Source: an uncultured Verrucomicrobiae bacterium (lineage in GTDB: Bacteria; Verrucomicrobiota; Verrucomicrobiia; Chthoniobacterales; Terrimicrobiaceae). From it: a stretch of DNA of 64,000 nt. The notes beneath the pieces are model-generated. The model was not told the DNA's origin, did no database searches, and saw only the letters and a list, made by a program, of their open reading frames with translations. The stretch spans positions 928,001 to 992,000 of the forward strand of contig CAVPOC010000008.1 in assembly GCA_963706955.1 (NCBI GenBank), read 5' to 3'. The stretch's first letter is position 1, and each line of letters opens with the position of its first letter. The position numbers were made by a program, and so were the translations under genes. Below are positions 2,956-61,947 of this stretch, in pieces.

Positions 2956-3014
2956 TACAGCGACGGTGTCCTCACCGTCGGAGATCAGTCGGCGGCGCGG
3001 ACGCCGCCGCGACA
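2956..3014. repeat. REP doublet, family B (degenerate)
   Basis: TACAGCGACGGTGTCCTCACCGTCG-spacer-CGGCGGCGCGGACGCCGCCGCGACA between convergent genes; matches copies at 19045 and 32260. Confidence 0.7.
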
Positions 3015-3024
3015 AATAACGACG

Positions 3025-6629: not shown

Positions 6630-6651
6630 TGAGCGAGCCGCATTATTAGAC

Positions 6652-6677
6652 AGGCGGTTGACACAACCGCCTCTACA
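6652..6677 (-). repeat. REP element, family A, downstream of RAYT
   Basis: Minus strand TGTAG-AGGCGGTTG-TGT-CAACCGCCT: GTAG tetranucleotide followed by a perfect 9-bp hairpin. Confidence 0.85.
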
Positions 6678-6682
6678 AAACA

Positions 6683-7132: not shown

Positions 7133-7156
7133 GCCGACGTTTAACCTGTCGAGAGT

Positions 7157-7184
7157 GAGCGTAGTTGACACAAGCGCCCGGACA
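7157..7184 (-). repeat. Degenerate REP, family A, upstream of RAYT
   Basis: Minus strand TGTCCGGGCGCTTGTGTCAACTACGCTC versus intact TGTAGGGGCGCTTGTGTCAAGCGCCC at 12687. Confidence 0.65.
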
Positions 7185-7201
7185 AAGGCATCTCTTCCGC
7201 G

Positions 7202-11826: not shown

Positions 11827-11884
11827 GAGATGCCAAAGTTCAACTTCGGCACTATGAGAAGTTGTATGGCCGACGTAGACGCGT

Positions 11885-11948
11885 TGCAGAGGCACTTGGC
11901 ACAAGCGCCCAGCTAATCCACAGGCGGCTTGGCACAAGCGCCTCTACA
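11885..11948. repeat. REPIN (inverted REP doublet), family A
   Basis: TGCAGAGGCACTTGGCACAAGCGCCC-spacer-GGCGGCTTGGCACAAGCGCCTCTACA. Confidence 0.82.
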
Positions 11949-11973
11949 ATCCTCAAATTAATCGCGGCGAGCC

Positions 11974-12549: not shown

Positions 12550-12686
12550 GCCACGATTGAACTAAGTCGGTCGCCAAAGAACAAGCTCTAGGAGGTATTT
12601 CGAAGCGTCGGTTTTTGGTTGCAGCGGCGGCGTCCCGACCTCCGACAACCGAACCAGTCTTAAATATCTCGGCGAAATCGACGAAT

Positions 12687-12750
12687 TGTAGGGGCGCTTG
12701 TGTCAAGCGCCCAGCGAAGCCCACAGGCACTTGACACAAGCGTCTCTACA
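12687..12750. repeat. REPIN (inverted REP doublet), family A
   Basis: TGTAGGGGCGCTTGTGTCAAGCGCCC-spacer-GGCACTTGACACAAGCGTCTCTACA. Confidence 0.88.
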
Positions 12751-12860
12751 AATCTTTCGAGTTAACGTTGTGGAACCGCTTATAAGAGTTGCTTTAAGTT
12801 AGCTACCTCGCGCGTGACCTAATCTCAAATGCTTTTCCGCCGATGCGACTTACTTAGCAC

Positions 12861-19044: not shown

Positions 19045-19107
19045 TGTAGCGGCGGCGTCCCCGCCGCCGGGGGAAGAACCCTCGGCGATGAGGACATCGC
19101 CGCTACA
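19045..19107. repeat. REPIN, family B (best-preserved copy)
   Basis: TGTAGCGGCGGCGTCCCCGCCGCCG-spacer-CGGCGATGAGGACATCGCCGCTACA between convergent genes. Confidence 0.88.
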
Positions 19108-19131
19108 CCAAGCGGTCGCAAACTCCGAAGG

Positions 19132-32259: not shown

Positions 32260-32318
32260 TGTAGCGACCGTGTCCCCACGGTCGGGGTTTTCCCGGCGAT
32301 GGGGACATCGCCGCTACA
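32260..32318. repeat. REPIN, family B
   Basis: TGTAGCGACCGTGTCCCCACGGTCG-spacer-CGGCGATGGGGACATCGCCGCTACA. Confidence 0.85.
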
Positions 32319-32356
32319 ACGACCATAGTCCCCGGGCACCATGGACAGTATGCTTC

Positions 32357-35856: not shown

Positions 35857-36035
35857 CATCTTTCTCTCGTTCGCAAGAGGGCTTCTCTTTGCTCGTTTCT
35901 GGTGGGACCTACTGGACACTATCTTGCGATGGTTAGCCAGTTTCGTCTAACCAATCCCTAATAAATGGCCCCCCTTCGCCATGGAAAATCTGTGTCCTGA
36001 GGGTCCTCGAATGTCCGGTGTCGGCAGCCGATAGT

Positions 36036-36080
36036 AGCTCGAGAAGGGTCATCCACAGATTCCACAGATTTCCGCCGATT
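36036..36080. repeat. CACAGAT-type periodic repeat (family C), left arm
   Basis: AGCTCGAGAAGGGTCATCCACAGATTCCACAGATTTCCGCCGATT, near-identical to 46280-46324. Confidence 0.75.
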
Positions 36081-41812: not shown

Positions 41813-41864
41813 AACCGCGATCCGAGTACTTAGTCGCGGGCCTCAATCGTCGAGGGCTGTTCCC

Positions 41865-41889
41865 CGGCGGCGTGGACGCCGCCGCTACA
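41865..41889 (-). repeat. REP, family B (single intact half)
   Basis: CGGCGGCGTGGACGCCGCCGCTACA. Confidence 0.75.
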
Positions 41890-42003
41890 ACAATAAATGG
41901 CGCCTCAGCGCTGCTTCGGTTTGTATGCATAGTACATGGGTCGGCGCTTAGGCTGCTATAAAATCGCGCCGTCGGCGCTCAACCACTCCGCCCTCGGTCT
42001 GGT

Positions 42004-44656: not shown

Positions 44657-44838
44657 GCGCGGCCAGTTGATGGTTGAGACTTGATAGGTGAGAGAGACAG
44701 GAGTGGGGAGCGGGGAGCGATCAAGACATAGGTAACACTTCTGGTTCAGGACATGGGTAACACATGAGGGCGGTTAGAGCGTGCGGCGCGATTGCCTTTC
44801 CTCTCAACCCTCAACAATCAACTATCAACTGGCCGCGC
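44657..44838. repeat. 38-bp imperfect inverted repeat built from heptamers, enclosing an IS481-like terminal repeat pair
   Basis: GCGCGGCCAGTTGATGGTTGAGACTTGATAGGTGAGAG (44657-44694) versus 44801-44838; internal GACATAGGTAACAC and GACATGGGTAACAC. Confidence 0.75.
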
Positions 44839-44851
44839 GTTGCGCGGCCGT

Positions 44852-45484
44852 TCACGGTTTTTTGTAAAAGCGGATTGCCTCGATTCCGCTGCCGAAGTGC
44901 TTCAAAGCATAGACTCCGCGTTCGCCGCCGCGCCCCGGATCGCGGATGAGATAGTCAAAGCCCTCCTTGCCGCAGATGACCACGAAATGCGTAATGCCAT
45001 TGGGATAACGCAGCCGCGCGATCACCGGATTATTGTCGAGCAGGTTGCTGTCAATCAGGAAATAGGATGGCAAATCTTCGTAGTGCGGCAAAAGACGGGA
45101 CCTAAAGCCCGCATCAAACGCTGCTGCTTTTTCCCAGTAGATCCACCCTTGCGGCGTGTAGCCGCCCGGTAAATTTGTCAGGAATTTGTTCAACCGGCCC
45201 GGATCCACATCGACGCCATAAGTCGCAAGCGTCATTGCCGCCGACGCGACGGCACAACCTTCCGCCGCGAGCTTGCCCGGAGTAGACCCGAGAGCGTCCT
45301 TGCCCCATCGAGGATCGGACTGAAAGAACTGCGGCACATTCAACTCGAGTCGCCCCGGATAATAGAGGCCGCCGGAACCGGCCACTGGCCGTTCCTTCTT
45401 CCAATCATTCACCCACCAGGCGCCCCACGCACCCAGGCAAACCAAGACAAGCAGGAGACAAAGAAAAATCCGCCTTGCGGTCAT
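44852..45484 (-). CDS. Peptidase C39-like family protein, membrane-anchored
   Basis: F.QSDPRW, GCAVASAAM, HFVVICG, IRDP catalytic pattern. Confidence 0.8.
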   Translation of the reverse strand: MTARRIFLCLLLVLVCLGAWGAWWVNDWKKERPVAGSGGLYYPGRLELNVPQFFQSDPRWGKDALGSTPGKLAAEGCAVASAAMTLATYGVDVDPGRLNKFLTNLPGGYTPQGWIYWEKAAAFDAGFRSRLLPHYEDLPSYFLIDSNLLDNNPVIARLRYPNGITHFVVICGKEGFDYLIRDPGRGGERGVYALKHFGSGIEAIRFYKKP

Positions 45485-45510
45485 GATAAACTGAATCTTG
45501 TTTACAAACC

Positions 45511-46278
45511 GTGATTCCGCGAGTCCTGATTTTTTGCCTGCTGACGGCTTCGGCCGCGCTCGCGGATTTCAACAAGACCATCCTCGACCAAGTCCGCACC
45601 ATGCCTGCCGGAGGCGGTTACGCGACCAACATCAAGGCACACGCCGCGCTCGCCGACTCGGTTCAAGTTCACGATTCGGTCCGTATTCAACCGGAGCTGG
45701 CGATGCCTGCTTATTGCTCCGGGGCGACCTACCTCGTCTTCCTTAAGACACTTCAAGCTCTTCAAGAGAACGGAACAATTTCCCTTTCACACGAAACATG
45801 GGCCGCGCTTGTCCCGCGATTGCGGCCCGACGGCAAGGACACCCTTCCCGATGGCGAAAGCGTCTGGGGACGCTGGAATGCCAATGGGCCCGGGACCGCG
45901 CGCCTCTTTCACCAACTCGGACTCGGGCGCAGTTTCACCGAGTTCTCGGCAGCTCGGTCCGGCGACTTCATGAAGGTATTTTGGACCGATGCCGTCGGAA
46001 AAAAAGAAAGCGGACACTCCGTTGTCTTCCTCGGACTTGAGAACGTCAATGGCGTCGAAACTGTCCGCTTTTGGTCGAGCAATCGTCCGGGAGGTTTCGG
46101 GGAGAGTTCCGTCCCACGAGAGAAAATCGCGCGGGCTATTTTTTCCCGTCTCGAGCACCCCGGAAGAATCTCCGATTGGTCGAAGCTCTCGGTGAGCGAT
46201 CCCTATCTCGCAAGTCTGCTCACCACCGAATCAAGCTTCCGTGAGGCGGCCAGAATGTCGGGGATCGGCGGCCGCTAG
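45511..46278 (+). CDS. Secreted hypothetical protein (possible papain-like Cys-His hydrolase)
   Basis: Signal peptide; YCSGATY, GDF, GHSVVFLG. Confidence 0.7.
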   Translation: MIPRVLIFCLLTASAALADFNKTILDQVRTMPAGGGYATNIKAHAALADSVQVHDSVRIQPELAMPAYCSGATYLVFLKTLQALQENGTISLSHETWAALVPRLRPDGKDTLPDGESVWGRWNANGPGTARLFHQLGLGRSFTEFSAARSGDFMKVFWTDAVGKKESGHSVVFLGLENVNGVETVRFWSSNRPGGFGESSVPREKIARAIFSRLEHPGRISDWSKLSVSDPYLASLLTTESSFREAARMSGIGGR

Positions 46279-46279
46279 G

Positions 46280-46420
46280 AGCTCGAGAAGGGTTATCCAC
46301 AGATTTCAGAGATTTCCGCAGATTCTTTGGAAGGCACGCGGGAGAACTTCCGCATCTTTCAAGGGGCACGACGTAGCCTCTCGCCCTCATGCGTATTTAT
46401 CTGTGCCCATCTGTGGATTA
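46280..46420. repeat. Family C periodic palindromic element
   Basis: ATCCACAGATTTCAGAGATTTCCGCAGATT ... ATCTGTGCCCATCTGTGGAT between convergent genes. Confidence 0.78.
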
Positions 46421-46451
46421 TGATCGCTCGCGCACAAAGTGACGCAGATTT

Positions 46452-48062
46452 TCAGGGAAGGGCTTCGAGAAGGATCCGCCGGATCTCCTTGGCAGTTTCA
46501 GGATTCTGCGGAGCGCTGTGGTCCGAAGGCACGATCCGCTCACTCACGGCGGTTCTGAGATGCGAACTCCAGTAGGGCACGACGCCGTCCGTGCTGTTCG
46601 GCGAGTCTCCCATGCCGCGATCGCCGATTACAGAATGATACGGAATTGTCTCGGTAAGCGGCAGTGTCTCGATGGCTTCTAAGATGGGCGAGCCGGATTT
46701 CAGGAAGCGGATGCTGTTGGCTGGGAGCGTGAACAGTCCCCTCAGATCCTCCCGAATCGCCTCGAGCAAGACTTTCCGGTCCCGACGGCTGACGGTTCGC
46801 GGCATCTGGATAAAGCGAATGGCTGTTTGAATGATGGGGTTGTGAGGAATGGGACTGCCCCTATGGGGTGTCGTCACGTAAACCACGCGAGCGATATCGG
46901 TGCGCGGAGAGAATTTCACCATATCTGTAATCATGCGCCGCGCTTCCGGGCTGAGATCGAGCTCCTCGAGTGGAGTGTCCGACAGCGTCGCCCAAAAACT
47001 CTCTCCGGGATCACGGACCATCAGGCTCGAGACAAGCCCGCCCATGCTATGGCCCACCAGAATGATCCGGTGAAGGTTCGCGTGGCGACCGTGCTTCTCG
47101 AGCTCGCGGTGGAAGCGGTCCAGGTCCGTGCGCAGCAGCATGGAGGAGTGCCAGATGGGAAGGCCGGTGGGATAGAGGAAAACCCAAAATTGATAGCGCG
47201 ATCGAATGCGCGCGTCGGCCATGAGGCCGTTGAGCACCTGTACCCAAGCCTCCGGCCGCGAGAATAAGCCATGAACAAGAATCACTGGAATCCGTTCGCG
47301 GTCGTAGAGTTGAATTTGGTAGAGTCCGGCGTGTCGCAGATGCTGTCGTGTAAACACGAGCCCGGGAACGTCGAACGGACGGTTCGGCGAGCGGGACACC
47401 GCTAGGGCAATTGAGGCGGAAAAATCGGCCACCAACGGAAGCTTTCTGCCGTCGCTGTCAACATGGTCTCTTTCGAGCCGGTTGTAAAAACTTAGCCGTG
47501 CCTCGTTGCCAGCGAAGCTAAGAAACGCCGTCACGGGCACGGAAATCCCGAACCGGGAAATCCCAGGCTGATCCCTGAGAAAGGGCGAACCTCGATCGTA
47601 GCAGAATACAAACGGCACGCCGGCACCTTCCTCCGTCGTGCGCGGTCCAAGGTCACTCGTGTGAACGTTCGCCGCCAGGGTCACTAGATTCGCTGCTGCC
47701 GGGTCGAGCCGGAGCATGCCCTCGCGCTCAATGGTGAGGGTGAACGAGCCGTCGCGCCCCGTAACCTCGCCTTCAACGAAACGCCGCTCTTGCACGACGG
47801 CGACGACCTCGGCGAGCGCCTTGTTGTAGTTCTCGCCGTCCCGTTTGTTTCCCTCGATCATCCCGGACCAAGCCGCCTTGGCCGCACTAAGGGCCGCGGA
47901 TAAACGCTCGTCGGAACGAGTAACGACAGCCTGTCGCCGAGCCAGAACTTCGGCGGTTCGGAGAACCGGGCGTTCCGCGGTGGCGGTTTCCTCGGCGCAG
48001 ACTGTGCCGCCTGTTAACGCCCAGAAGGCGGCGACGATCGAGAGACACCATCGTTTAACCAC
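46452..48062 (-). CDS. Alpha/beta hydrolase (esterase/lipase family), secreted
   Basis: VHGLFS, F.YPTG, GHSMGG nucleophile elbow, TPHRGS, DGVVPYWSSH. Confidence 0.85.
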   Translation of the reverse strand: MVKRWCLSIVAAFWALTGGTVCAEETATAERPVLRTAEVLARRQAVVTRSDERLSAALSAAKAAWSGMIEGNKRDGENYNKALAEVVAVVQERRFVEGEVTGRDGSFTLTIEREGMLRLDPAAANLVTLAANVHTSDLGPRTTEEGAGVPFVFCYDRGSPFLRDQPGISRFGISVPVTAFLSFAGNEARLSFYNRLERDHVDSDGRKLPLVADFSASIALAVSRSPNRPFDVPGLVFTRQHLRHAGLYQIQLYDRERIPVILVHGLFSRPEAWVQVLNGLMADARIRSRYQFWVFLYPTGLPIWHSSMLLRTDLDRFHRELEKHGRHANLHRIILVGHSMGGLVSSLMVRDPGESFWATLSDTPLEELDLSPEARRMITDMVKFSPRTDIARVVYVTTPHRGSPIPHNPIIQTAIRFIQMPRTVSRRDRKVLLEAIREDLRGLFTLPANSIRFLKSGSPILEAIETLPLTETIPYHSVIGDRGMGDSPNSTDGVVPYWSSHLRTAVSERIVPSDHSAPQNPETAKEIRRILLEALP

Positions 48063-48224
48063 AGATTCACACCGATTCACACCGATAGAGGAGAGCTCGG
48101 GCGCGGAGCAGGCAAGAACTCGGGCTTCACACGCTTCTTAGCCGTGGCGGCTGCAAGGCTGATCCACAGTGGTGACGTTTCGCACAGTCGTCCAAATCTG
48201 TAAAAGTCTGTGCCAATCTGTGGG
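48057..48224. repeat. Family C periodic palindromic element (long spacer)
   Basis: AACCACAGATTCACACCGATTCACACCGAT ... AATCTGTAAAAGTCTGTGCCAATCTGTGGG. Confidence 0.72.
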
Positions 48225-48234
48225 TCCTCGGGAA

Positions 48235-49134
48235 CTAGAAGCCAAGCGAGCGAATAAAGTCGCGATTGCGCTTGGCGGATTCCTTCGGCTTGCCCATGCC
48301 CGGGAGGACATCCTGCTCGACAACGCCCCATCTATCATACTCGAGTATCTCGAGCTCCTTCATGAGAGCTGAAAAGTCGACATTACCCTTGCCGAGTTCA
48401 CAAAAAATACCATGGCGGACACATTGAAAGTAATCCCAGCCCTTTTCTGCGGCTTCCCTCCCCACGCCAGGATGATAATCCTTGAAATGGAAGTGCCAGA
48501 CGCGTTTGCCGTACCGGCGCAAGCCCTCCAGCGGATCGCCTCCTCCAAAGCGATAGTGACCGCAGTCAAAGGTCAAGCCGAGCACTTCCGGGTCGGTGAG
48601 CGACATGAGTCGGGCGATCTCTGCGGGCGTCTCCACGTATCCGGCGCAGTGATGGTGGAAAGCGGTCCGTAGTCCGGTTTCTTTTTTAACCGCTTCCGCC
48701 ACTTTCGTCGCTCCTTCGGCATAAGATTGCCACTCGGCATCGCTCAGCCCCATCTCCGGAGTAACCCGCCCCGCATTTTTCGTGCGCTCGGGAACTCTCC
48801 CATTCTCATCCGCGAGAACAATGACGGGCAGGCTTCCCTCCACCGCGGCCATCAAGCGCGCGGTGCGAACGGCGATTTCCACGCCGGCGGCGTGTTCCGA
48901 CGGTTCTTTGAGAAAGACCGGCACAAATGCCCCCAGCAGCACCAGGTTTCGCGCGTGAATCTCCTGGGCGAGTTTCTTCGGTTCAGTCGGCATGAATCCC
49001 CAATCGCCCAGCTCGGTTCCGGCATAGCCCGTCTCAGCAATTTCATCCAGCACCTGCACGTATCCCGGAGCTTCCCCTTCCAGTTCGAATTCGAGTGCTC
49101 CCCAAGAACACGGCGCGTTAGCGATCTTGATCAT
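48235..49134 (-). CDS. Sugar phosphate isomerase/epimerase TIM barrel (IolE inosose dehydratase-like)
   Basis: ANAPCSWG, GTELG, FHHH.AGYVET, D.GH, HFKD, ELGKG.VDF, VVEQD. Confidence 0.85.
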   Translation of the reverse strand: MIKIANAPCSWGALEFELEGEAPGYVQVLDEIAETGYAGTELGDWGFMPTEPKKLAQEIHARNLVLLGAFVPVFLKEPSEHAAGVEIAVRTARLMAAVEGSLPVIVLADENGRVPERTKNAGRVTPEMGLSDAEWQSYAEGATKVAEAVKKETGLRTAFHHHCAGYVETPAEIARLMSLTDPEVLGLTFDCGHYRFGGGDPLEGLRRYGKRVWHFHFKDYHPGVGREAAEKGWDYFQCVRHGIFCELGKGNVDFSALMKELEILEYDRWGVVEQDVLPGMGKPKESAKRNRDFIRSLGF

Positions 49135-49361
49135 TGCATCACCTCAGTTTGAACGTAGAAACGGACCCACCAAGCAATAAGCGCAGGGGGAATCCTGCTC
49201 CATGATGAGCAAAGACCAGCAGACCGGTCAAGCCCGCCAGGATCGCGAAGATCGGGCCAGCACTTCTCCTGTAAATGGCTGAAACACATTGCAGCACCGG
49301 GCATGAAAATGTACTACCGCAGGTTGGAAGCGCCCCCAGGTTTCACGCCTCTACTTGCGAT

Positions 49362-51431
49362 ATGACCAAGCCGAATGACGAATATGTTGGATGGCTCGTC
49401 GAGCATTCGATGCTCAACAATGCCAAGAAACTTGCCCTGCGCTACGGTGGTCAGGGTCGGATGTGGCAGCAACCCTTCGCCGAGGCACGCCCGCGCGCCG
49501 CTTCTGCTCTCGCCTCTGTCTGGTTCACCGCCTACCCCGCTGCGATTGTCACACGCCCCGGCGAGTCGGTTCTCCGCACGCTCGCGGATCCCGCTCTCTG
49601 GACAGCCTTGTCAGCCATCGGAATCCAGGGGGTCCACAATGGGCCTATGAAGCGCTCGGGAGGCATCCGCGGTCAGGAGTACACGCCCACAATCGACGGA
49701 AACTTCGATCGGATCAGCTTTGAGATCGAGCCGTCATTTGGAACCGAGGAAGACTTTATTGCGATGGGCCGAACGGCTGCTGCCCACAACGCGGTCGTCG
49801 TCGACGACATCGTTCCCGCGCATACCGGCAAGGGCGCCGACTTTCGCCTCGCCGAAATGGGATACGGAGAATATCCGGGCATTTATCACATGGTCTCCAT
49901 CCCGGAGACCGACTGGGGGCTTCTTCCGTCCGTTCCGCCAGGGCGTGAAGCAGTCAATCTCTCTCCGGCCACGGTCGATCAGTTGAAGGAAAAAGGTTAC
50001 ATCGTGGGACAGTTGCGTCGCGTGATCTTTTTTGAACCAGGCGTGAAGGAAACGGATTGGAGCGCCACCGGTGTAATCGTTGGTGCGGACGGAGTCTCCC
50101 GGCGGTGGGTGTATCTCCATTACTTCAAGGAAGGGCAGCCGTCGCTCAACTGGCTCGATCCCACGTTTGCCGCGCCCCAACTGATCATCGGCGACGCGCT
50201 TCACTCGGTCGATGTCCTCGGTGCTCGAATGCTGCGGCTTGACGCCAATGGATTTCTTGGCGTCGAGCGCAGGGCCGAAGGCCCGGCGTGGTCGGAAGGC
50301 CATCCACTCTCGGTAGTCGGCAACCAGTTGATTGCAGGAATGGTGCGCAAAGCCGGCGGTTTCAGCTTTCAGGAACTCAACCTCACCGTCGATGACATCG
50401 CGGCGATGTCCCATGGTGGAGCCGACCTCTCCTACGACTTCATCACCCGCCCTGCTTACCATCATGCGCTCATGACCGGCGACACCGAGTTCCTCCGCCT
50501 GATGCTAAAAACGATGCGCGACTACAACATCGACCCCGCTTCGCTCATCCACGCGCTTCAAAACCACGACGAACTCACGCTCGAGTTGGTCCATTTCTGG
50601 ACCCTTCACGCTAAAGACACCTACACGTTTGGCGGGAAGAGCTGGACGGGCGAGACGCTCCGCGAGCACTTGCGCGCAACCATGTACGAACGACTGACCG
50701 GCAGCAACGCTCCATACAACTTGCGCTTTGTCACGAATGGCGTGGCTTGCACTACGGCCACTGTGATCGCCGCGGCGCTCAATATCCGCGACCTGCAGAA
50801 TCTGACTGAAGAACAGAAGCGGCAAATCCAACGCGTTCATCTGCTCCTCGTCATGTACAACGCCTTTCAACCCGGCGTCTTCGCGCTGTCCGGCTGGGAT
50901 CTCGTCGGTGCGCTTACGCTGCCGCATGAGACCGTCGCCGCGCTCATCGCCGAAGGCGATACCCGGTGGATCGAACGGGGCGCCTACGATCTTGTCAATG
51001 CTAACCCCGGCGCTCAGACTTCCGAGGCAGGCTTGCCGAAAGCGCAGACGCTTTACGGACCGATCAACGACCAACTCAAGCGCCCCGACTCGTTCGCCAG
51101 CCAACTGCAGAAGATGCTCGCCGTCCGCCAAACCAGCGGGCTCTACGCCAGCCACCAGATCCTGGTTCCAGAGGTTACCAGTCCTGGACTGCTCGCCATG
51201 GTCCATGAACTGCCCGAGGGGAAGGGAATCCAAGTGACGGCGCTCAACTTTGGCGCAACTCCCATCGACGAGACCATCAACCTTCCCAATCTAAAACCCG
51301 GTCCAGTTGTTGACATGATCAACGAAACCAACGAGGGCGACCTCTCCGATTCGGGCGAGCTGCGCATCCAATTGCAAGGCTACGAAGGCAAGTCGCTCCG
51401 CATCGTCGGCCCAGCGCCCGCGCGCAGCTAG
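49362..51431 (+). CDS. treS: Trehalose synthase (maltose alpha-D-glucosyltransferase), Pseudomonas stutzeri-type
   Basis: [59 protein letters not shown]. Confidence 0.92.
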
Positions 51432-51679
51432 GCGCTTGCGACCGCCCGAGGCGCCTTTTCCGCAATGAGCATACACTTAGATTGAGTTATTCAATCTGTG
51501 GACGATCTCCAGTTCAAGTGAGGCTGGAGACCCTCTTCCACTGCATCGAACTCTGGCTAGCACTAACTCTCGACCTACGAATGCGATCAGGCCGCTCTAG
51601 TGAGTCACGCTACTGTGTTAATCTGTGGATGCAACAGGAGCGGCTGACGTAGCGAGAACATCATCTTGGAGAAGCCCCG

Positions 51680-52282
51680 ATGACCTTGCGTGACCTTGAT
51701 CGCACCCAGAAGGTTGACGCGCTAGATGTCCTCTGCGCCGCCTTCCATGATTATCCGGTTCCGCGTTACGTGATCGACGTGACAGCTTCCGACTACGACG
51801 GCAAGCTCCGGGAACTTATCGACTTCTTCGTCGAGGGGCGCCTCACACGTAGTGTCCCCCTGATCGGACTGTATGATTCTAACGCTCTCCTTGGCGTCGC
51901 AGTCGTCAGTCCGCCGCAGGAAGCTCCTGTCCCGTCGGAACTCGAGGTTTGCCAGGCTCGGGCTGAGCGGCTGCTTGGACGGGAAGCGATGGCGCGATTT
52001 GAACGCTACGAGAAGGCGTGCGAAGCGACCGACCCAGGATACGTCGCACACTATCTTGGCATGATCGCCGTCCGGCCCGATGTGCAAGGCCGCGGCCTTG
52101 GCCGTCAGTTGATCGACGCAGTCAAAGCGAGAGCGCGCTCTGATCCGATTTCTACGGGTGTCACGCTCAACACGGAGTTGGCAAGCAACCTGCCTTTCTA
52201 CGAGAAGATGGCCTTTATCAGAGGCTCCGAAACCGACGTTGGCCCGCTTCATACCTGGTCGTTTTACTGGCCCCGGGACTAA
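51680..52282 (+). CDS. GNAT family N-acetyltransferase
   Basis: YLGMIAVRPDVQGRGLGR, NLPFYEK. Confidence 0.88.
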   Translation: MTLRDLDRTQKVDALDVLCAAFHDYPVPRYVIDVTASDYDGKLRELIDFFVEGRLTRSVPLIGLYDSNALLGVAVVSPPQEAPVPSELEVCQARAERLLGREAMARFERYEKACEATDPGYVAHYLGMIAVRPDVQGRGLGRQLIDAVKARARSDPISTGVTLNTELASNLPFYEKMAFIRGSETDVGPLHTWSFYWPRD

Positions 52283-52313
52283 GTGTTGGGTCGGAACGGC
52301 GGCGAGCCCTCTC

Positions 52314-52366
52314 GATTCACAATTTGCGCAGATTTTCAACGGATTCACAGAAATCAATCTGTGGAC
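52314..52366. repeat. Family C element (internally deleted)
   Basis: GATTCACAATTTGCGCAGATTTTCAACGGATTCACAGAAATCAATCTGTGGAC. Confidence 0.8.
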
Positions 52367-52481
52367 TTATTGAACCGCCGAAATGCAGCATCGCTGTTCT
52401 CCGGTGTCAGTAATCGAGCCAAACAATTTGACCGACGCCAGCTTGACGGGCCTCCCAGTTTCAATTCAACAATCCGATCTG

Positions 52482-53231
52482 ATGAAACTAACTAATAAGA
52501 TTGCACTCATCACTGGAGGAACCAGCGGGTTAGGTCTAGCCACCGCCAAGCGTTTTGTCGCTGAAGGCGCCTTCGTCTTCATTACCGGCCGCCGTCAGGC
52601 CGAGCTCGACGCAGCCGTCAAAGAAATTGGCGAAAATACTATCGGAGTTCGCGGCGATATTTCCAAATTGTCGGATCTCGATCATCTTTTCTCAGTCATC
52701 AAAGAGAAAAAAGGGCGCCTCGACATTCTCTTTGCCAACGCGGGAGGCGGAGCGTTCTTCCCTCTTGAGGAAGTCACTGAGGAACACTTCGACAAGTATT
52801 TTGGCATCAACGTTAAGGGAACGCTCTTTACCGTCCAAAAAGCACTGCCGCTCATGCCAGCAGGCGCCTCTATTGTGATCAACGGATCGATGGTGTCGAT
52901 CAAAGGCATTCCCGCGTTCGGCGTGTATGCCGCGACGAAGGCGGCATTGCGTTCATTCGCGAGGACGTGGGCGGTGGATTTGAAAGGGCGCAACATCCGC
53001 GTCAACGTCGTCGCTCCCGGCACCATCGTTACACCAGGATACAAGAGCGAACTTGGATTGAGCGACGAACAGATCGAAGGCTTCAAGGCCCAGGCCGCTG
53101 CCGCCGCCCCGCTTGGACGCACCGGCACTCCGGAAGAAGTGGCTGCGGCGGTGCTTTTCCTTGCCTCGGATGATGGCAGCTACGTCAACGGCGTTGAGCT
53201 TTTTGTCGATGGTGGAACCGCGCAAATCTGA
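52482..53231 (+). CDS. SDR family oxidoreductase
   Basis: [27 protein letters not shown]. Confidence 0.93.
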
Positions 53232-53352
53232 CAGCAACGGCGATAACCATGCGGTCAGATCATGGCATATAAAAAAGGGGGTAATTAGAACGCCGGAGTG
53301 GCCTTGGGATAGTGATCGGCCCGACCACGCTAGTCTAAGCTTTGGAAGAAGA

Positions 53353-53387
53353 TCCAGTTGTTGACATGATCAACGAAACCAACGAGG
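53353..53387 (+). repeat. Exact 35-bp direct repeat of treS 51302-51336
   Basis: TCCAGTTGTTGACATGATCAACGAAACCAACGAGG at both positions. Confidence 0.92.
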
Positions 53388-53449
53388 TGATCTCGGACTC
53401 GAATCAAGTCACTCTGCGGCGCGGGGGGGCCGCTTCCGCGAGACCTGGT

Positions 53450-53521
53450 AATCCATTAGATTGCGCAGATTTTGGTGATTCACAGAACTTCATCTGTGGG
53501 AATCTGTGTTGATCTGTGGAC
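53450..53521. repeat. Family C element (full)
   Basis: AATCCATTAGATTGCGCAGATTTTGGTGATTCACAGAACTTCATCTGTGGGAATCTGTGTTGATCTGTGGAC. Confidence 0.85.
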
Positions 53522-53631
53522 CTATAAAATCGGGAGGAGCTGTGCCAACATGCAAGCCCTCGGCCCTTTGGCAAGTCGATCCGCGAAAGGCCAAGCCGCT
53601 AGAAGAGGAATGAGAAGCCTGTCGAAATTTC

Positions 53632-55110
53632 ATGAATGCAAAATCAAGAATCTCTGTATTGATCGTAGGAGCTGGCCCGGTGGGTCTGACCATGGCTGCG
53701 GAGCTGGCCCGTTATCAGATTCCCATTCGCATCATCGACAAATCGTCCGCCCGCACTGACAAATCGAAAGCCGTCACGTTGTGGAGCCGGAGCCTTGAAC
53801 TCCTCGATCGAGCCGGCAATGCGGAAGATTTTATTTCAGCCGGCCTGCGGCTGCATGCCTCGAATTTCGTTGCCGACGGCAAGCATCTGGCGCGGGTTGA
53901 TTTCGATGGCGTTCGTTCGCCCTACGCCTTCGCACTTTCGATTCCCCAATCCGAAACCGAACGCATCCTGGAAGAGCGCCTTTTCGCGCTCGGCATCAGA
54001 GTCGACCGCAACGTCGAATTGATAAGCTTCGCCGAGGCCGCCGAGTCGGTGAGCTGCGTCCTGCAGCATCGCGACGGCTCAGAAGAGGAGACGGAGGTTG
54101 ATTGGCTGATCGGTTGTGATGGCGCGCATTCAACGATCCGTAAGGATCTTGGTCTGGAATTTCACGGAGACACCATTCCTTATGACTTCGCTTTGGCAGA
54201 CATTCATGTCGCCGGACTGGAGGTGGCTCCAGATGAACTCGTCGTCTTTTTCCACAGCGACGGAATGGTGCTTTTCATCCCGATCAAGGGTGACCGCTAT
54301 CGCATCATCGCTGACCTTGGGCCCTCTACCGGCGGGCCCCGCGTCGATCCAACTCTAGAAGAGGTCCAGGCGATCGTTGATCGCCGTGTGGGGGGAGCGG
54401 TGAGTCTTTCCCGGCCGATCTGGCTGGCTGCGTTTGGCATCAATGAACGAAAAGTGGACACTTATCGTCGAGGCCGGGTCTTCGTCGCCGGCGATGCGGC
54501 GCATATTCACAGCCCCGCTGGTGGGCAGGGCATGAACACAGGCATGCAGGATGCCTTCAATCTCGCGTGGAAACTCGCCCTGGTCGTGCAGCAGAAGGCA
54601 AAGCCGGACATTCTCGAGAGCTACACAGACGATCGCAGTCCGGTCGCCAAGCAGGTGTTGGCCGATTCCGGCAGGCTTACGTCAATTGGGATGACAAAAA
54701 ATCCCGTTCTCCAGCAGCTGCGCAACCTGTTCGCCCACCATGTTCTTGGGTTTCCCGCAGCTCGTCACGCCATGGCTGCACGTCTCTCGGAAACATTCTT
54801 TGGCTATCCCCACAGTCCGCTAAATAGCGGTTCCGCCGCGGGGCTCAACGGCCCCGCACCGGGCGACCGCATTGTAGTTGAAAAGCCCTTTGGATCTGGC
54901 AATGCACCGCGCTTCGCCTTGATGGCCAAGGACGCGTCAGCGTCCAGTGTCATTATGGAGAAATATTCGTCGCTGGTGGAAGATTCCGTCCGCACTCCGC
55001 CCGACGAGAAGGGCATCTGGCTGGTTCGTCCCGATGGCTACGTCGCGGCGGTGGCTCATGATAGGGATTGGGAAATAATCGAGGCAGCCTTGAGGAAGAT
55101 TGCCCCCTAG
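53632..55110 (+). CDS. FAD-dependent monooxygenase (FAD_binding_3, PheA/TfdB-like)
   Basis: GAGPVG, GCDGAHS, GDAAHIHSPAGGQGMNTGMQDAFNLAWKL, LVRPDGYV. Confidence 0.92.
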   Translation: MNAKSRISVLIVGAGPVGLTMAAELARYQIPIRIIDKSSARTDKSKAVTLWSRSLELLDRAGNAEDFISAGLRLHASNFVADGKHLARVDFDGVRSPYAFALSIPQSETERILEERLFALGIRVDRNVELISFAEAAESVSCVLQHRDGSEEETEVDWLIGCDGAHSTIRKDLGLEFHGDTIPYDFALADIHVAGLEVAPDELVVFFHSDGMVLFIPIKGDRYRIIADLGPSTGGPRVDPTLEEVQAIVDRRVGGAVSLSRPIWLAAFGINERKVDTYRRGRVFVAGDAAHIHSPAGGQGMNTGMQDAFNLAWKLALVVQQKAKPDILESYTDDRSPVAKQVLADSGRLTSIGMTKNPVLQQLRNLFAHHVLGFPAARHAMAARLSETFFGYPHSPLNSGSAAGLNGPAPGDRIVVEKPFGSGNAPRFALMAKDASASSVIMEKYSSLVEDSVRTPPDEKGIWLVRPDGYVAAVAHDRDWEIIEAALRKIAP

Positions 55111-55186
55111 AAGACTTAGCTGCAGGTTGGACGTGCGGCGCAACCGAGGTCCACGGCGCAACGCCCCGTTTTTCGGGAGACCAGCT

Positions 55187-55257
55187 GATCCACAGATTGC
55201 ACAGATTTTCAACGATTCACAAAGTCCATCTGCGTAAGTCTGTGTTAATCGGTGGAC
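55187..55257. repeat. Family C element (full)
   Basis: GATCCACAGATTGCACAGATTTTCAACGATTCACAAAGTCCATCTGCGTAAGTCTGTGTTAATCGGTGGAC. Confidence 0.87.
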
Positions 55258-55275
55258 CTAAAGGCTTGCGCGAGT

Positions 55276-56436
55276 TCACAGCGGTTCGCCGCCTTCGTTG
55301 AGGATCGACAGGTAGGCATCATAGACAAAGACGCGGTTGCGGCGTTGGCCGGTCAACTCGCGGGCGATGCCCGTCTTCAGGAGCGATTGCATGGCTTTTC
55401 CAGCCGTGGGAAAGGTCATCTTGTGAGCGTCGCGCAGATGTTTCAGAGTGAGCACTGGTCGCTCGCGCAGTGCAGCGAGGACACGGAGGGCATTCGGGGC
55501 CGCACGACCTGTCTGTTGGACGCGCCGGCTGTCCGTCTCGAAGAGATCAATAAGGCGGCGTGCCGTTTGCACGGCGCCGCGGGCGGTCTCCTCAACGCCT
55601 TCGAGGAAGAAATCGACCCAAGCCTCCCAATCGCCTGCGGTGCGCACACCGTCGAGAAGATCGTAATACACCTGGCGGTGTTCTTTCAAGTAAAGGGAAA
55701 GGTAGAGTAACGGTTGGGCGAGAAGCCCGCCGTGGTGGAGCACGAGGGCGATAAGCAGCCGACCAAGACGACCATTCCCATCGAGGAACGGATGGATGGT
55801 CTCGAACTGGACATGGGCCAGCGCAGCCTTGAGGAGAATCGGTAGACCGCTTTCCTGGTGCAAGAAACTCTCCAGCGCAGCCATGCAACGCTCCACCTCT
55901 TGAGGCGGCGGAGGCACGAACCGTGCATTCCCCGGACGCGTGCCACCAAGCCAGTTCTGGGTTCGGCGAAACTCGCCCGGCAGCTTGTTACTACCCCGCC
56001 CGCGAGACATGAGAACCGCGTGCATTTCTCGAAAAAGACGATTCGAGAGCGGGAAACCCTCCCGCAGGCGGGCCATGCCACGCTCGAGTGCACCGATGTA
56101 GTTGGATACTTCAACCACATCGTCAAAGGGAGTGCCGGGAACCTCCTCGAGCTCGAAAAGGAGCAGATCAGACAAGGAAGATTGCGTGCCCTCGATCTGC
56201 GATGAGAGCACCGCCTCGCGCCGGACATACGAATAGAGGACAAGTTGGGGGTCGGGAAGGAGCGTGGTGAGGCTGTCGAGCCGCCCGACTGCCAGGGTCG
56301 CCTTCTCGAGCAGGAGTTGCCGAGCACCGGTGATCTCCAGACCCGGTACCGGCGGCAATCCAAGCGGCACAAAGGCGCGGACGTGATCCCCGGCCATGGA
56401 AGTCGTATGATAAGTGCCGGCACGATCGCGATTCAT
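55276..56436 (-). CDS. Fic family protein with C-terminal HTH
   Basis: Fic motif HPFLDGNGRLGR; N-terminal autoinhibitory SSQIEG; C-terminal ELTGQRRNRVF. Confidence 0.93.
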   Translation of the reverse strand: MNRDRAGTYHTTSMAGDHVRAFVPLGLPPVPGLEITGARQLLLEKATLAVGRLDSLTTLLPDPQLVLYSYVRREAVLSSQIEGTQSSLSDLLLFELEEVPGTPFDDVVEVSNYIGALERGMARLREGFPLSNRLFREMHAVLMSRGRGSNKLPGEFRRTQNWLGGTRPGNARFVPPPPQEVERCMAALESFLHQESGLPILLKAALAHVQFETIHPFLDGNGRLGRLLIALVLHHGGLLAQPLLYLSLYLKEHRQVYYDLLDGVRTAGDWEAWVDFFLEGVEETARGAVQTARRLIDLFETDSRRVQQTGRAAPNALRVLAALRERPVLTLKHLRDAHKMTFPTAGKAMQSLLKTGIARELTGQRRNRVFVYDAYLSILNEGGEPL

Positions 56437-56441
56437 ATCCA

Positions 56442-56495
56442 GAACTTGAATAAGTTCAGAATTTATTAAAGAAACACAACTTATTATTTAATAAG
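56442..56495 (-). promoter_or_regulatory. AT-rich fic promoter region with two palindromes
   Basis: GAACTT-GAAT-AAGTTC (56442-56457) and CTTATTA-TT-TAATAAG (56480-56495). Confidence 0.55.
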
Positions 56496-56550
56496 ATAAC
56501 GGCGCGAAAGCTTGAATTGCCGCAAGTTTAATAACACGTAGGACGGAAAC

Positions 56551-56582
56551 CCATCTGTGGAAATCCGCGTTAGTCTGTGGAT
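56551..56582. repeat. Family C element, right arm
   Basis: CCATCTGTGGAAATCCGCGTTAGTCTGTGGAT. Confidence 0.7.
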
Positions 56583-57905
56583 CTATGTCTCTTCTCGCGA
56601 AGCTTCGATGCGCGATTGCCTGCGTCCCAGCCCGGCGCCGACTCCAGCCCAAAGAAGCGCGACGGCCGCGCCGATGAGCATCGCTGTGGCCGGGAAATCT
56701 GCAAATAGATCGAGGCCGCGCTTGACCCACCCGCTGATGGCGTCGCCGCCACGGTAAACCACCGTATCGATGAAGTTCTTCGCTTTATACTTTTGTTCCG
56801 GGGGCACTGAGGTGAAGAGCATCTCCCGTCCAGGTCTTACGAGAGCGTATTCGCCCGCTCGACGGACGATCATCACGACGACCAGGACCGCGAACACCGG
56901 AGCCATTGCCAGCCAAAGGAAGCCGGCCGCCAGCACGACCGGCACGGCGGCAAGAAGGACGCCGATTCCCAGCTTTCGGGCGATATGTCCGGTAAAGAAG
57001 ATCTGCGTCAGGATGGCGAGAGCCTGCACGACGCTGTCGATCAGTCCGAACACTTGGGTTTGCCGCGTTCGATCGGGGAAAGTCTCCGCGACCAGCCGGG
57101 CCTGCTCGAAGTAAAGGAATGTGGTGATGCTGGAGAGCAGCAGCACGAATACGGCGATGCCGATGAGGTAGGGAGACTTGAAGACCTCCGTGGCACCGGC
57201 AAAAGGGTTGCCGCCAAGCGGACGATGCCGCTCGTCATCGCCAGCACTTTCCACTTCCCTCCGCACGTCGGCCACCGGATGGAGGTCGCGCCAGCGGTGC
57301 AGCCAGATCGCTGCACCGGCGCTGCCCGTCAGCAGCAATGCCGAAAAGACCAAGAGACCAGCGTGTCCGATCGGCGCGACCAACAGCGTCCCTAAAATCG
57401 GCCCAGTCAGCCCGCCGAAGCTGGCTCCGCCGGCGATCAGGGCGAAGAGGCGTTTCGCCTGTGTGGTCACGAAGATGTCGGCGGAGACGCTCCAGGCCAG
57501 CGACACTGCCAAGAGATTGAAGACAGAGATCCAGACGTAAAAGGCGCGGGCGGTCCAGAGGTTGTCCGGCTGAGCGGCGAGGACTGTGGCAAACCCAATC
57601 AGGTTCGTGACGAAAAACCCATAGGTCCATGGCAAGATCGATCGGCGAGAAACCTTCGAAGCCACCCAGCCAAAGAGCGGAAGGACAGCCACCGTCGCGA
57701 CGAAGGTGCCAGTGAACAGCCATTGCAACGTTTCGGGGCCGCTGGCCACACCCATGGTCTCGCGCACCGGACGCAGCATAAAGTAGCCGGTGAAGAGCAG
57801 GAAAAACATCAGCAGACTAGCGGCCACAGCCGGAACCTCCCCGGGTTCCACGTTGAGGAAACGGGCGAGGAGTCCCGGCGAACGACCTTTATCTTGCTGC
57901 GCCAT
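56583..57905 (-). CDS. MFS transporter, NTP/NDP exchange (TLC-like) family
   Basis: YFMLRPVRE, AKRLF..IA.G, RPGREMLFT......KYKAKNFIDTVVYRGGD. Confidence 0.85.
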   Translation of the reverse strand: MAQQDKGRSPGLLARFLNVEPGEVPAVAASLLMFFLLFTGYFMLRPVRETMGVASGPETLQWLFTGTFVATVAVLPLFGWVASKVSRRSILPWTYGFFVTNLIGFATVLAAQPDNLWTARAFYVWISVFNLLAVSLAWSVSADIFVTTQAKRLFALIAGGASFGGLTGPILGTLLVAPIGHAGLLVFSALLLTGSAGAAIWLHRWRDLHPVADVRREVESAGDDERHRPLGGNPFAGATEVFKSPYLIGIAVFVLLLSSITTFLYFEQARLVAETFPDRTRQTQVFGLIDSVVQALAILTQIFFTGHIARKLGIGVLLAAVPVVLAAGFLWLAMAPVFAVLVVVMIVRRAGEYALVRPGREMLFTSVPPEQKYKAKNFIDTVVYRGGDAISGWVKRGLDLFADFPATAMLIGAAVALLWAGVGAGLGRRQSRIEASREET

Positions 57906-58079
57906 CGTCGGTCACCTTAGCACCGGCCGCCGGTTGGGAGTTGAGAGTTTGTCTCTAAGTCGCCCAGCGACGAGTCACCATCCGCTAGTGTTCAGCAAGA
58001 GGGGATCCAAGGGCATCCGGAGTGACCCTGACAAAATGCGGGTGCGGTGGTAGAATACAATGTCGATCTCTCCCTAGAC

Positions 58080-59597
58080 ATGGCGCAGCTCGAGATATTT
58101 AAGGTGCATCCGCTTTTCGAGGACGTGCAGCTCGGCGGTATTTTTCCAGACCAAAAGACGTTTGTTGATTGCCTGCCTAAACGCCCTCTTGAAGAAATTG
58201 CGAAGGAATACCGCCTCGCCAAGACTTCGGCCGATTTTAGCCTCAGGGACTTTGTTGACGCGCACTTCGAACGACCGCCGGAATACGGGACAGACTACGT
58301 CAGCGATCGGACCAAAGAGGTTGAAGAAGATGCGGAGTCGCTTTGGACCATCCTAACCAGGCAACCTGACACCACCGCGGGATCGCTCCTCCCGCTGCCC
58401 TTTCCCTACATTGTTCCGGGCGGGCGCTTTCGCGAGATCTATTACTGGGACAGTTACTTCACCTCTCTTGGCCTGCGTGCCTCGGGCAAAGTCGATATGA
58501 TCGAAAACATGGTGAAAAACTTTTCTCACCTGATCGACACGGTCGGCAATATCCCCAACGGCAATCGCACTTACTATCTTGGCCGATCGCAACCGCCCTT
58601 CTACGCGATGATGGTGAAGCTCCTGGTGGAAGAGCGCGGCGAGGGGATTCTTCTAAAATACCTCCCTCAACTCGAACGCGAGTATCAGTTCTGGATGAAA
58701 GGCGCTGCGGACCTGACTGAGAACCGTTTGACCGCACATCATTCGGCCAGAATGCGCGATGGTGAGGTGCTCAACCGTTATTGGGACGAGAACGACACTC
58801 CCAGACCGGAGTCGTTCCAGGAGGATCTCGAGCTGTCACACCTATCAGATCAGCTCCCCGCCAACCTATTTCGCCACCTCCGCGCGGGCGCGGAATCTGG
58901 TTGGGATTTCAGCAGTCGGTGGTTCAAGGACGGGCGTTCCCTTGGCTCCATCCACACCACCGACATCGTGGCGGTCGATCTAAATTGCTTGTTGCTGAAT
59001 CTGGAGAGAACCATCGCGGAGGCCTTGCAGGTGGCCAGAAACGTTCAAGAGATCGAGCGCTTCGAAGAGCTTGCCGCGTGCAGAGAAACAGCCATCCAAA
59101 AATACTTCTGGAACGAGGAGAGGGGCTTTTACTTCGATTACGACATCGCGCGGGGACAGCAAAACAAAGCAATGACCCTCGCGGGGGTGTTTCCCTTGTT
59201 CTTCAAGGTGGCGACGGAGGAGCAGGCCAAGGCGGTCGCCGGCACCATTGAGAAAAACTTCCTCATGTCTGGCGGCGTCGTCACTACCCTGGAGACAACC
59301 GGCCAACAGTGGGATGCTCCGAATGGCTGGGCGCCGCTGCAGTGGATCACGATCGTTGGTCTAGAGAACTACGGTCACCACGAGCTCGCCGCCGAAGTTG
59401 CCAGCCGCTGGGTCAACCTGAACTCAGATGTATTCAAGCGCACTGGCAAGCTGATGGAAAAATACAACGTCGTTGACACCCACCTGGAAGCGGGTGGCGG
59501 CGAATACCCAGGCCAGGATGGATTTGGTTGGACCAACGGCGTCCTGCTCGCGTTGAAAGCTCACGGTCAAGTCGAAGCCGCTGCCTCCCGGCAGTAA
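58080..59597 (+). CDS. Alpha,alpha-trehalase (GH37, TreA/TreF-like)
   Basis: DQKTFVD, PGGRFREIYYWDSYF, PNGNRTYY..RSQPP, AESGWDFSSRW, QQWDAPNGWAPLQW, GFGWTNGV. Confidence 0.95.
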   Translation: MAQLEIFKVHPLFEDVQLGGIFPDQKTFVDCLPKRPLEEIAKEYRLAKTSADFSLRDFVDAHFERPPEYGTDYVSDRTKEVEEDAESLWTILTRQPDTTAGSLLPLPFPYIVPGGRFREIYYWDSYFTSLGLRASGKVDMIENMVKNFSHLIDTVGNIPNGNRTYYLGRSQPPFYAMMVKLLVEERGEGILLKYLPQLEREYQFWMKGAADLTENRLTAHHSARMRDGEVLNRYWDENDTPRPESFQEDLELSHLSDQLPANLFRHLRAGAESGWDFSSRWFKDGRSLGSIHTTDIVAVDLNCLLLNLERTIAEALQVARNVQEIERFEELAACRETAIQKYFWNEERGFYFDYDIARGQQNKAMTLAGVFPLFFKVATEEQAKAVAGTIEKNFLMSGGVVTTLETTGQQWDAPNGWAPLQWITIVGLENYGHHELAAEVASRWVNLNSDVFKRTGKLMEKYNVVDTHLEAGGGEYPGQDGFGWTNGVLLALKAHGQVEAAASRQ

Positions 59598-59740
59598 TCG
59601 CGAGAACGTTGAGATTCTCCGCTTGCCATCGCGCGCAGCTCGTTGCGTCTTCCTTTTCCCGGCAGAATCGCAGGTTGCCGCGCCGCTCCAGTGGGTGGCC
59701 GGCGGAATCGGCAGCGACAAGGCGATTGTCACGCAGCGCG

Positions 59741-60493
59741 TCACCGAGGCTTTGCTACCTTTGTCGATCTCGCCGAAGAATCATTTTTTGAGTTCGGCAA
59801 TGGAAGCCATGTCTCGTCTGATGTGACGTCAGAATCTTTCCTCCGCCAGTTGATGCCCGGCATACAACAAGGCCGTCGCTTTCCCGAAGCAAGCATGTCG
59901 CACGCATTCTGGATCCGGCGGCGGCGCGTTTCCTCTTGCTTGGCAGAGACTATCCAGAGAATCCAGTCCCGGCGGGCCATGGGTGTGATCCCTCGCCACA
60001 TGACCCACAAAGCTTGCGCCCGCCCGGGTTCCGGGAGTCGGGTCCGAGCAGACTTAAGGGCCTCCCGTAGATCCATGGGCACCCTGCACTCCGGTTCTTC
60101 ACCGACCCGTGTAATCTCCACCGTGACCGCGTCTCCAACGCCCTCGCGCCCGGAAATCCCTGCCGCATCTTCCAGGGCTTTGCTCAGCCTGAGCCAGTAG
60201 CTTCCAGTGCCATTAATATCCAGAGCGGCTCGAAAGGGGAAGCCATTGATCGTTCCCTCAACCATCGTCACATCTCGAGAGGGGGCCGAGGGGAACGGGA
60301 GTCTCGCACTGACGTTCTTGGGCAGAGTGAGAAGGGTCCACGAGTCAACCCCCTCAATATTTTCAGTTGGCTTTTCGGGTGCCTTGGGGCCGGACCGAAA
60401 CAACTTGGCACTGAATCGAATTGCTGGCCTGCTTTCCTGCAGCTCAGCCAGATTCAGCGGTCTCGCTGCCTTGGATTTGGACTTGCTGACCAT
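59741..60493 (-). CDS. YdeI/OmpD-associated family protein with DUF1905 domain
   Basis: VEGTINGFPF, GDAVTVEI, VPMDLREAL, ITP.ARRDWI.WI.SAKQ.ETR.RRI. Confidence 0.82.
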   Translation of the reverse strand: MVSKSKSKAARPLNLAELQESRPAIRFSAKLFRSGPKAPEKPTENIEGVDSWTLLTLPKNVSARLPFPSAPSRDVTMVEGTINGFPFRAALDINGTGSYWLRLSKALEDAAGISGREGVGDAVTVEITRVGEEPECRVPMDLREALKSARTRLPEPGRAQALWVMWRGITPMARRDWILWIVSAKQEETRRRRIQNACDMLASGKRRPCCMPGINWRRKDSDVTSDETWLPLPNSKNDSSARSTKVAKPR

Positions 60494-61885: not shown

Positions 61886-61947
61886 TGGAGTGACGGTGTC
61901 CGCACCGTCGAGGGAGGCCTTCCAGCGGTGGAGACACCGCCGCTGCA
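61886..61947. repeat. REP doublet, family B (degenerate)
   Basis: TGGAGTGACGGTGTCCGCACCGTCG-spacer-GCGGTGGAGACACCGCCGCTGCA. Confidence 0.7.

Follow-up and report, generated by a model that had tools for sequence, protein, structure and literature searches.

One gene per palindrome behind treS: probable gene-less copies of a GxxExxY-associated repeat in an uncultured Verrucomicrobiae bacterium

Introduction

Repetitive extragenic palindromes (REPs) are described as coming with genes that are flanked by inverted REPs and that co-evolve with them (accessible part of PMC2817692), and the accessible part of a second paper describes the spread of REPs followed by local amplification, with possible capture of flanking genes (PMC3333891). 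Here we compare with such systems a repeat from a 64,000-nucleotide stretch, "the window", of an uncultured Verrucomicrobiae bacterium (assembly GCA_963706955.1, contig CAVPOC010000008.1, positions 928,001 to 992,000). The element is an imperfect palindrome whose arms are runs of CACAGAT-type words with a period of 9-10 bp, and its copies separate single GNAT, SDR, FAD monooxygenase and Fic genes in a run (51.5-56.6 kb) that is flanked by treS on one side and by an MFS and trehalase pair on the other. A first-pass annotation of the window had offered two readings, namely that the element is a recombination or gene-capture site of an unrecognised cassette system, or that it is a repeat, resembling REPs or miniature inverted-repeat transposable elements (MITEs), that is enriched in a gene-acquisition hotspot. 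The cassette-system reading is not supported by the present analysis and the repeat-in-hotspot reading is. We consider it probable that the window repeats are old copies, devoid of the gene, of a palindromic element that is dispersed in the genome and has a GxxExxY gene in its full-length form, and that they accumulated in successive gaps by local spread, not by gene-by-gene capture.

The GxxExxY family (PF13366, or PDDEXK_3) is widespread, occurring in 31 of 41 related genomes, and is listed as being of function unknown (accessible part of PMC3424549), and the accessible text of a preprint mentions it only beside a reverse transcriptase (bioRxiv 10.1101/2021.01.26.428298). No description of GxxExxY-flanking repeats or of their gene-less derivatives was found in a literature search that left most subscription papers and supplements uncovered.

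Results

The gene-bearing form and the dispersal of its arms

Between metK and ahcY on contig C3 (723823-724255), a left and a right CACAGAT arm enclose a GxxExxY gene (PF13366, TIGR04256), and a profile made from the short copies of the element matches both of these arms. A second GxxExxY gene of this genome (G000), on C13 (L001:1290-1890) next to purL, has CACAGAG arms; in front of this C13 element stands a tandem copy of it that has lost internal sequence. Gene-bearing copies score above the curated cut-off of the family (TIGR04256/PF13366). Among 30 GxxExxY loci with an unbroken gene, the inverted-repeat score exceeds the 95th percentile of local controls in 20, and across 30 such loci the arm word follows the protein tree (as read by eye, with no statistical test), the C3 protein and its clade having C(A/G)CAGAT arms and other clades CACAGAG, CAGGAT, CACGGAT or CGCGAAG arms.

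In the protein, D67, E77 and K79 are conserved. The top fold match of its AlphaFold model (pLDDT 93) is Cas4 SSO0001 (E 9e-4), with other PD-(D/E)XK nucleases next, and a PDB sequence search with the GxxExxY profile returned nothing better than E 0.8. From the modelled fold we infer a nuclease activity, and GxxExxY supplies the co-occurring protein family that the first-pass annotation had suggested looking for. The gene-less units beside the GxxExxY gene of a relative, G004, retain scraps of that gene's 5' and 3' ends, and gene-less copies for this reason most likely arise by internal deletion of the gene-bearing form.

A word-array scan of the 4.16-Mb genome, which is 92.5% complete, finds 50 arms at 39 loci at or above a threshold of 19 bits, compared with none in 1.5 Mb of simulated DNA, though chance or a sister word family may account for a few of the arms with the lowest scores. 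Arms stand beside metK, ahcY, alaS, trpC, mnmA, xth, rmlD and purL (46 of 57 flanking open reading frames (ORFs) scanned). The short-spacer subfamily has seven copies in the genome; three of them lie within 3 kb in this cluster (P about 3.5e-5, computed after the cluster was seen).

What the copies do in related genomes

In G004, a conserved gene block (C7:1214-1230 kb) has a GxxExxY gene at its end, and arrays of the element, with units matching at 86-97%, occupy all six of the gaps that were measured in it. The block genes stand in the same order in G001, G010, G011 and G013. The gap between SBP and permease genes measures 796 bp in G004 versus 0 in all four relatives, and the DHO-HATPase gap 1158 bp versus 0 in both relatives where these genes adjoin; single copies sit in some other block gaps of G001, G010 and G011, and this genome has the block genes without arms. 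Since the G004 arrays fill gaps that are largely free of the element in three or four other relatives, it is the element that came to the genes, and the look of one gene per repeat arises in G004 without capture. Further sites that are filled in G007, G016, G017 or G004 are without arms in this genome.

Copies multiply, turn around and carry neighbouring DNA with them. Tandem amplification is seen in the G004 arrays and, in G017, in a doublet of 174 bp that consists of flank plus element. A leader of 55 bp that belongs natively to one G004 gap and occurs once in all four relatives is found a second time in the next gap, to the left of the element. In G008 and G010 the spacer of the 48060-48222 copy of the window runs in the opposite direction to that in G000, G001 and G004: three of the six cross pairs beat all shuffles only when flipped, the best of them (G001/G010) scoring 124 flipped against 25 as is, with shuffles at no more than 27. 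Finally, four breakpoints of gene or segment gain and loss fall at copies. Three are those of the hydrolase gene flanked by the copies at 46298 and 48060, the 215-bp piece and the 2.8-kb insert that starts near the 36054 arm (Table 1); the fourth is a 1.65-kb piece of G017, absent here, with a direct repeat of 160 bp, made up of flank and element, at either end. Flips, flank copying and breakpoints favour a recombination-prone element, with capture kept as an outside chance.

The cluster behind treS

The features of the cluster and of its surroundings are collected in Table 1.

Table 1. Copies of the element, genes and other features in the window (Pfam, gene label from Pfam; G numbers, related genomes; G000, this genome).
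Feature	Position	Strand	Remarks
Left arm with about 55 bp of flank	35998..36080	+	82% like 46242-46324; begins 2.8-kb insert absent in G016 and G017
Long-spacer element, left and right arm	46298..46415	+	After gene 45511-46278
Alpha/beta hydrolase gene between two elements	46452..48080	-	Pfam; present in G000, G004, G008; absent in G001, G010, G017
Long-spacer element	48060..48222	+	Spacer flipped in G008 and G010
treS (TIGR02455)	49275..51431	+	3' end is border of variable island
Possible single-unit right-arm remnant (weak)	51493..51503	+	11-mer 9 times in genome versus 2 for reversed control
Right-arm remnant upstream of GNAT	51613..51630	+	Its 16-mer 3 times in genome, the other two inside element copies
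GNAT acetyltransferase gene	51680..52282	+	Pfam; arms within 400 bp in 0 of 5 orthologues
Short-spacer element, decayed	52314..52366	+	53 bp; left arm of four CACAGAT-type units, right arm of one; profile score 51 bits
SDR oxidoreductase gene	52482..53231	+	Pfam; arms in 1 of 4 orthologues >90% identical
About 215 bp absent in G016	53236..53449	+	Ends at left edge of 53450 copy
Exact 35-nt duplicate of treS 51302-51336	53353..53387	+	2 copies in genome; population contigs start or stop there
Short-spacer element, full length, imperfect hairpin	53450..53521	+	60 bits; z -2.1; same place in G016
FAD-dependent monooxygenase gene (FAD_binding_3)	53632..55110	+	Pfam; arms upstream in G016, none in G004
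Short-spacer element, full length	55187..55257	+	62 bits; z -2.1; between convergent FAD monooxygenase and Fic genes
Fic_N and Fic gene	55276..56436	-	Pfam; G008 has Fic at same site between copies of another repeat
Right arm, three units	56551..56582	+	31 bits; between Fic start and MFS stop

Much of the description in the first-pass annotation holds. The copies at 52314, 53450 and 55187 lie where it had placed them, in one orientation, and its four gene labels agree with Pfam, with Fic on the minus strand. Its palindrome of about 70 bp is found at 53450 and 55187 and not at 52314, where two right-arm units are missing; folding gives imperfect hairpins with z of about -2 for the former two and none for the latter. 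Among its right-arm halves, 51613 and 56551 are upheld, and 51493 is graded a weak remnant because it is a single 11-mer with the genome counts given in Table 1. The trinucleotide that it had noted behind the longer copies is there (TTA, CTA and CTA after 52314, 53450 and 55187, respectively) and is no general rule: terminal CTA/TTA was considered as a target site and rejected, four of the five G017 copies aligned or printed being without it. Additional copies lie elsewhere in the window at 36054, 46298-46415 and 48060-48222. An Rfam search of 45000-60000 gave no match, and promoter and terminator scans stayed at chance level.

The window copies are 81-85% alike among themselves, 77-83% like the other short copies of the genome and 85-90% like copies in G016 and G017. 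Because these pairwise identities resemble those with distant copies, the window copies appear to be old and to have decayed separately. G016 has a copy before its SDR gene, at the same place as the 52314 copy. The left end of that G016 element is cut by a broken gene (L018:1310-2714) with no Pfam match, which from its motif we take to be IS110-like.

Downstream of treS, trehalase follows directly in five relatives (G003, G012, G013, G014 and G015) and different cargo follows in five others (G001, G004, G008, G010 and G017), and because content differs in this way the region behind treS is regarded as a variable island. Three genomes, G000, G004 and G008, have further pieces of the treS 3' end, either downstream or at a distance (51302-51336/53353-53387 in the window; L029:6175-6460; L207 near 10170), so that the island seems, from these sequence matches, tied to that end; the recurring pieces match what is expected of an island integration site in a protein-coding gene. 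Directly behind treS in G004 (L025:14740-16640) stands a GxxExxY element with CACGGAG-type arms in about three repeats of 555-bp period, every repeat unit containing a copy of the treS 3' end and the later copies being frameshifted. The corresponding region of G010 (L026:3848-8300) holds an IrrE-like peptidase, a patatin-like frame (by eye) and a SMODS nucleotidyltransferase, likely a defence cluster of the cyclic oligonucleotide-based antiphage signalling (CBASS) type, to judge from gene content. G008 (L029:3850-6050) has a LexA-like gene (by eye), a DUF5131 gene and a partner ORF, after which comes Fic, enclosed by a 370-bp repeat with GGGGTCAG ends that is present in two copies.

Other repeats share the window. 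A further word-array palindrome, with ATCAACT-type units, lies at 44657-44838 and also at loci L151, L152 and L153; the gap occupied by a CACAGAT element in this genome is taken by this family in G003, G013 and G015. At least two other families of intergenic palindromes have GTAG/CTAC-type ends (2959-3015, 6650-6687, 11871-11950, 12673-12754, 19045-19111, 32263-32322, 41846-41897 and 61889-61947) and are presumably REP-like, and one of these palindromes adjoins an ORF (6683-7606) that reads like a Y1 transposase. An element of about 310 bp, with 35-bp terminal inverted repeats ending in CCTAGG, occurs at least twice in the genome (13450-13759; C3:457.4-457.7 kb).

Orthologues, populations and further arrays

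If the four genes had travelled as gene-plus-element units, their orthologues might be expected to bring the element along. Of 13 orthologues with readable flanks (five GNAT, four SDR more than 90% identical, two FAD and two Fic), 11 are without the element and the two that have it are the SDR and FAD genes of G016, in the same order as here. Cargo orthologues keep native leaders of 45-70 bp, one of them within an operon, and a stretch of no more than 9 kb in G004 contains the FAD, SDR and GNAT genes on one strand, in the opposite order and with no arms.

Two collection scans with a strict pattern returned 17 loci, six of them repeats of known loci; the 11 new loci that were examined include no second multi-gene array and ten are single-site copies. 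One locus from these scans, L175, has several copies around a GxxExxY gene.

To judge from the habitats of the sequencing runs that contain it, the organism likely lives in soil. The cluster was also followed in contigs of four soil sequencing runs from four studies, each of which covers all 30 bins; RNA runs, in which only 5-8% of the words were present, were left aside. The contigs listed bridge the 51613, 52314, 55187 and 56551 sites in window order, and none of those listed bridges 53450. No joint skipping a gene, and no excision or reordering, was seen in any of the four runs, and none of the three joints listed lies at a copy; since rare variants are lost from contigs, and since the assembly itself may derive from one of the runs, this speaks for the absence of common rearrangements, not of all. 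A candidate excision circle of the FAD gene (a joint in run X9 from 55219 to 53504 with 18 letters between) was rejected and is read as another locus because the intervening letters resemble the spacer of the copy at C3:447760. All four runs lack one base at window position 53348, which may for that reason be an error or a private variant.

Discussion

Weighing the explanations

Under the capture hypothesis, which the first-pass annotation had raised, the element would serve a cassette system without integrase as its recombination site, and the array would be built as genes, each cut out together with its element, are joined to one end of a copy already in place. This hypothesis draws on the co-orientation of the copies, the single gene in each gap and the strong clustering, on the retention of element-SDR-element-FAD in G016, and on three of the breakpoints at copies, namely the hydrolase gene that comes and goes between two copies, the G017 piece between direct repeats and the 215-bp piece that terminates at an element edge. 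Several results stand against it: most orthologues are without the element, copies also stand beside core genes, Fic is reversed, no similar multi-gene array turned up among the loci examined, no joint skips a gene in the populations, and G004 has the same pattern around genes that did not move. Moreover, neither a fixed crossover nor a target duplication was found in the comparisons of filled with empty sites. We therefore regard gene capture of this kind as very unlikely. The same annotation had taken hundreds of randomly placed copies, also between core genes and free of breakpoints, as the sign of a mere repeat; copies beside core genes are indeed found, together with tens rather than hundreds of copies and some gain and loss breakpoints at them. 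Its other suggestion, of a MITE/REP-like repeat enriched in a hotspot of gene acquisition, fits the evidence.

A decayed integron cassette cluster, that is, a cluster of attC sites lacking an integron-integrase (CALIN), whose attC sites were overwritten by the element, would suit the cargo, as the GNAT, SDR, FAD monooxygenase and Fic families are common in integron cassettes. The annotation had stated that the element has no attC ends and that no integrase is in the window. None of nine matches to the integron integrase model (TIGR02249) passes the cut-off, the best reaching 79 of 265 bits, in a genome of the completeness given above; this is weak evidence against a CALIN because a CALIN need not have an integrase. 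A search of 51431-56600 for core pairs of the form RYYYAAC...GTTRRRY, made with a regular expression and not with a covariance model, gives four pairs, which start inside coding sequence or frame no element, and the orthologues retain their native leaders, one inside an operon. Such an origin is, to our minds, exceedingly improbable. Quite unlikely, on the other hand, is the proposal that the copies are passive, the island having been built by integration at the treS 3' end plus deletions, with the repeats persisting as terminators or RNA-stabilising hairpins and GxxExxY having no role in moving them. In its favour, the treS 3' pieces recur in three genomes, twice without CACAGAT arms nearby, the same gaps are taken by other repeat families in other relatives, and arms often begin right behind stop codons. 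Against it, the hairpins are weak or missing, terminator-like hits number 6 versus 4.9 expected with one partial hit overlapping a copy, young arrays adjoin a GxxExxY gene and contain its scraps, and the arm word tracks the protein clade.

A probable mechanism and its difficulties

For a dispersed element with a GxxExxY full-length form, the following course is the most probable. The GxxExxY protein would likely recognise the arms and cut at or beside them, and host repair would then copy, flip or multiply the unit nearby, sometimes together with about 55 bp of left flank, gene-less copies forming by internal deletion. Copies would crowd into islands because islands offer many fresh gaps, and pairs of copies could later act as recombination points at which the intervening DNA is deleted, duplicated or inverted. 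The cargo genes, in this course of events, likely came to the island by routes unconnected with the element, and some of the joints were shaped by the element afterwards.

Several points weigh against this account. The window cluster has no GxxExxY gene in its vicinity. In G017, which is 74% complete, the copies are young (82-97% alike) but a GxxExxY match is missing. For the window cluster itself the data do not demonstrate local spread, because its copies are no closer to one another than to those of G016 and G017, and shared flanks among them were looked for and none found. The reversed FAD-SDR-GNAT order in G004 is explained by no single inversion, and the G004 arrays come from one assembly. 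The partnership of protein and arms is deduced from sequence and genome comparison, and the four breakpoints at copies could be read as capture too. A bolder version, which we hold to be unlikely, has GxxExxY drive a kind of mobile DNA that has not been described: this very small Cas4-like nuclease would cut word-array palindromes, copies would spread locally, flip, amplify and carry flanks up to whole genes, and the run behind treS would be an array built by such capture without integrase or transposase.

Comparison with known systems

Integron cassette arrays and CALINs, as presented in the accessible text of bioRxiv 10.1101/2022.02.06.479319, share with this locus the single gene between successive co-oriented imperfect palindromes. 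They differ in that, here, no attC cores frame the repeat, no IntI was found, the repeat is dispersed by core genes, and orthologues are mostly without it. These loci also caution that a series of single genes, set apart by palindromes of one orientation, need not be the product of cassette capture.

Like the present element, the bacterial MITEs described in the accessible part of PMC3184786 are short and dispersed, with a non-coding core and inverted ends, and are internal-deletion derivatives of a gene-bearing element; terminal inverted repeats around a non-coding core, and filled and empty orthologous sites, are both found here. On the other side, no target-site duplication was seen at filled versus empty gaps, in relatives that are 15-25% diverged, there is no DDE transposase partner, and the ends are word arrays.

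The element also resembles REPs, or bacterial interspersed mosaic elements (BIMEs), with their REP-associated tyrosine transposases (RAYTs). As far as the accessible parts of PMC2817692 and PMC3333891 describe them, these share with our element a short gene enclosed by palindromic arms in inverted orientation, numerous intergenic copies without the gene, an arm sequence that changes with the protein, local tandem amplification and a proposed capture of flanks. However, the RAYT is a Y1 HUH enzyme (TnpA-REP), whereas GxxExxY is a PD-(D/E)XK member with a predicted Cas4-like fold. REP/BIME units have a GTAG-tagged short hairpin, in contrast to the tandem 7-base words at 9-10 bp period seen here, with no GTAG in the alignment consensus, and in-place spacer inversion is a further difference. 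The element thus works like a REP/BIME with its RAYT and is no member of that group, as enzyme class and repeat ends differ. The present loci provide concrete substrates and outcomes: gaps that are filled in one genome and empty in others, a spacer turned around in place, 55 bp of flank copied along with the element, and arrays in tandem next to the gene. If GxxExxY does mobilise these palindromes, they would constitute a REP/RAYT-like system run by a different class of enzyme.

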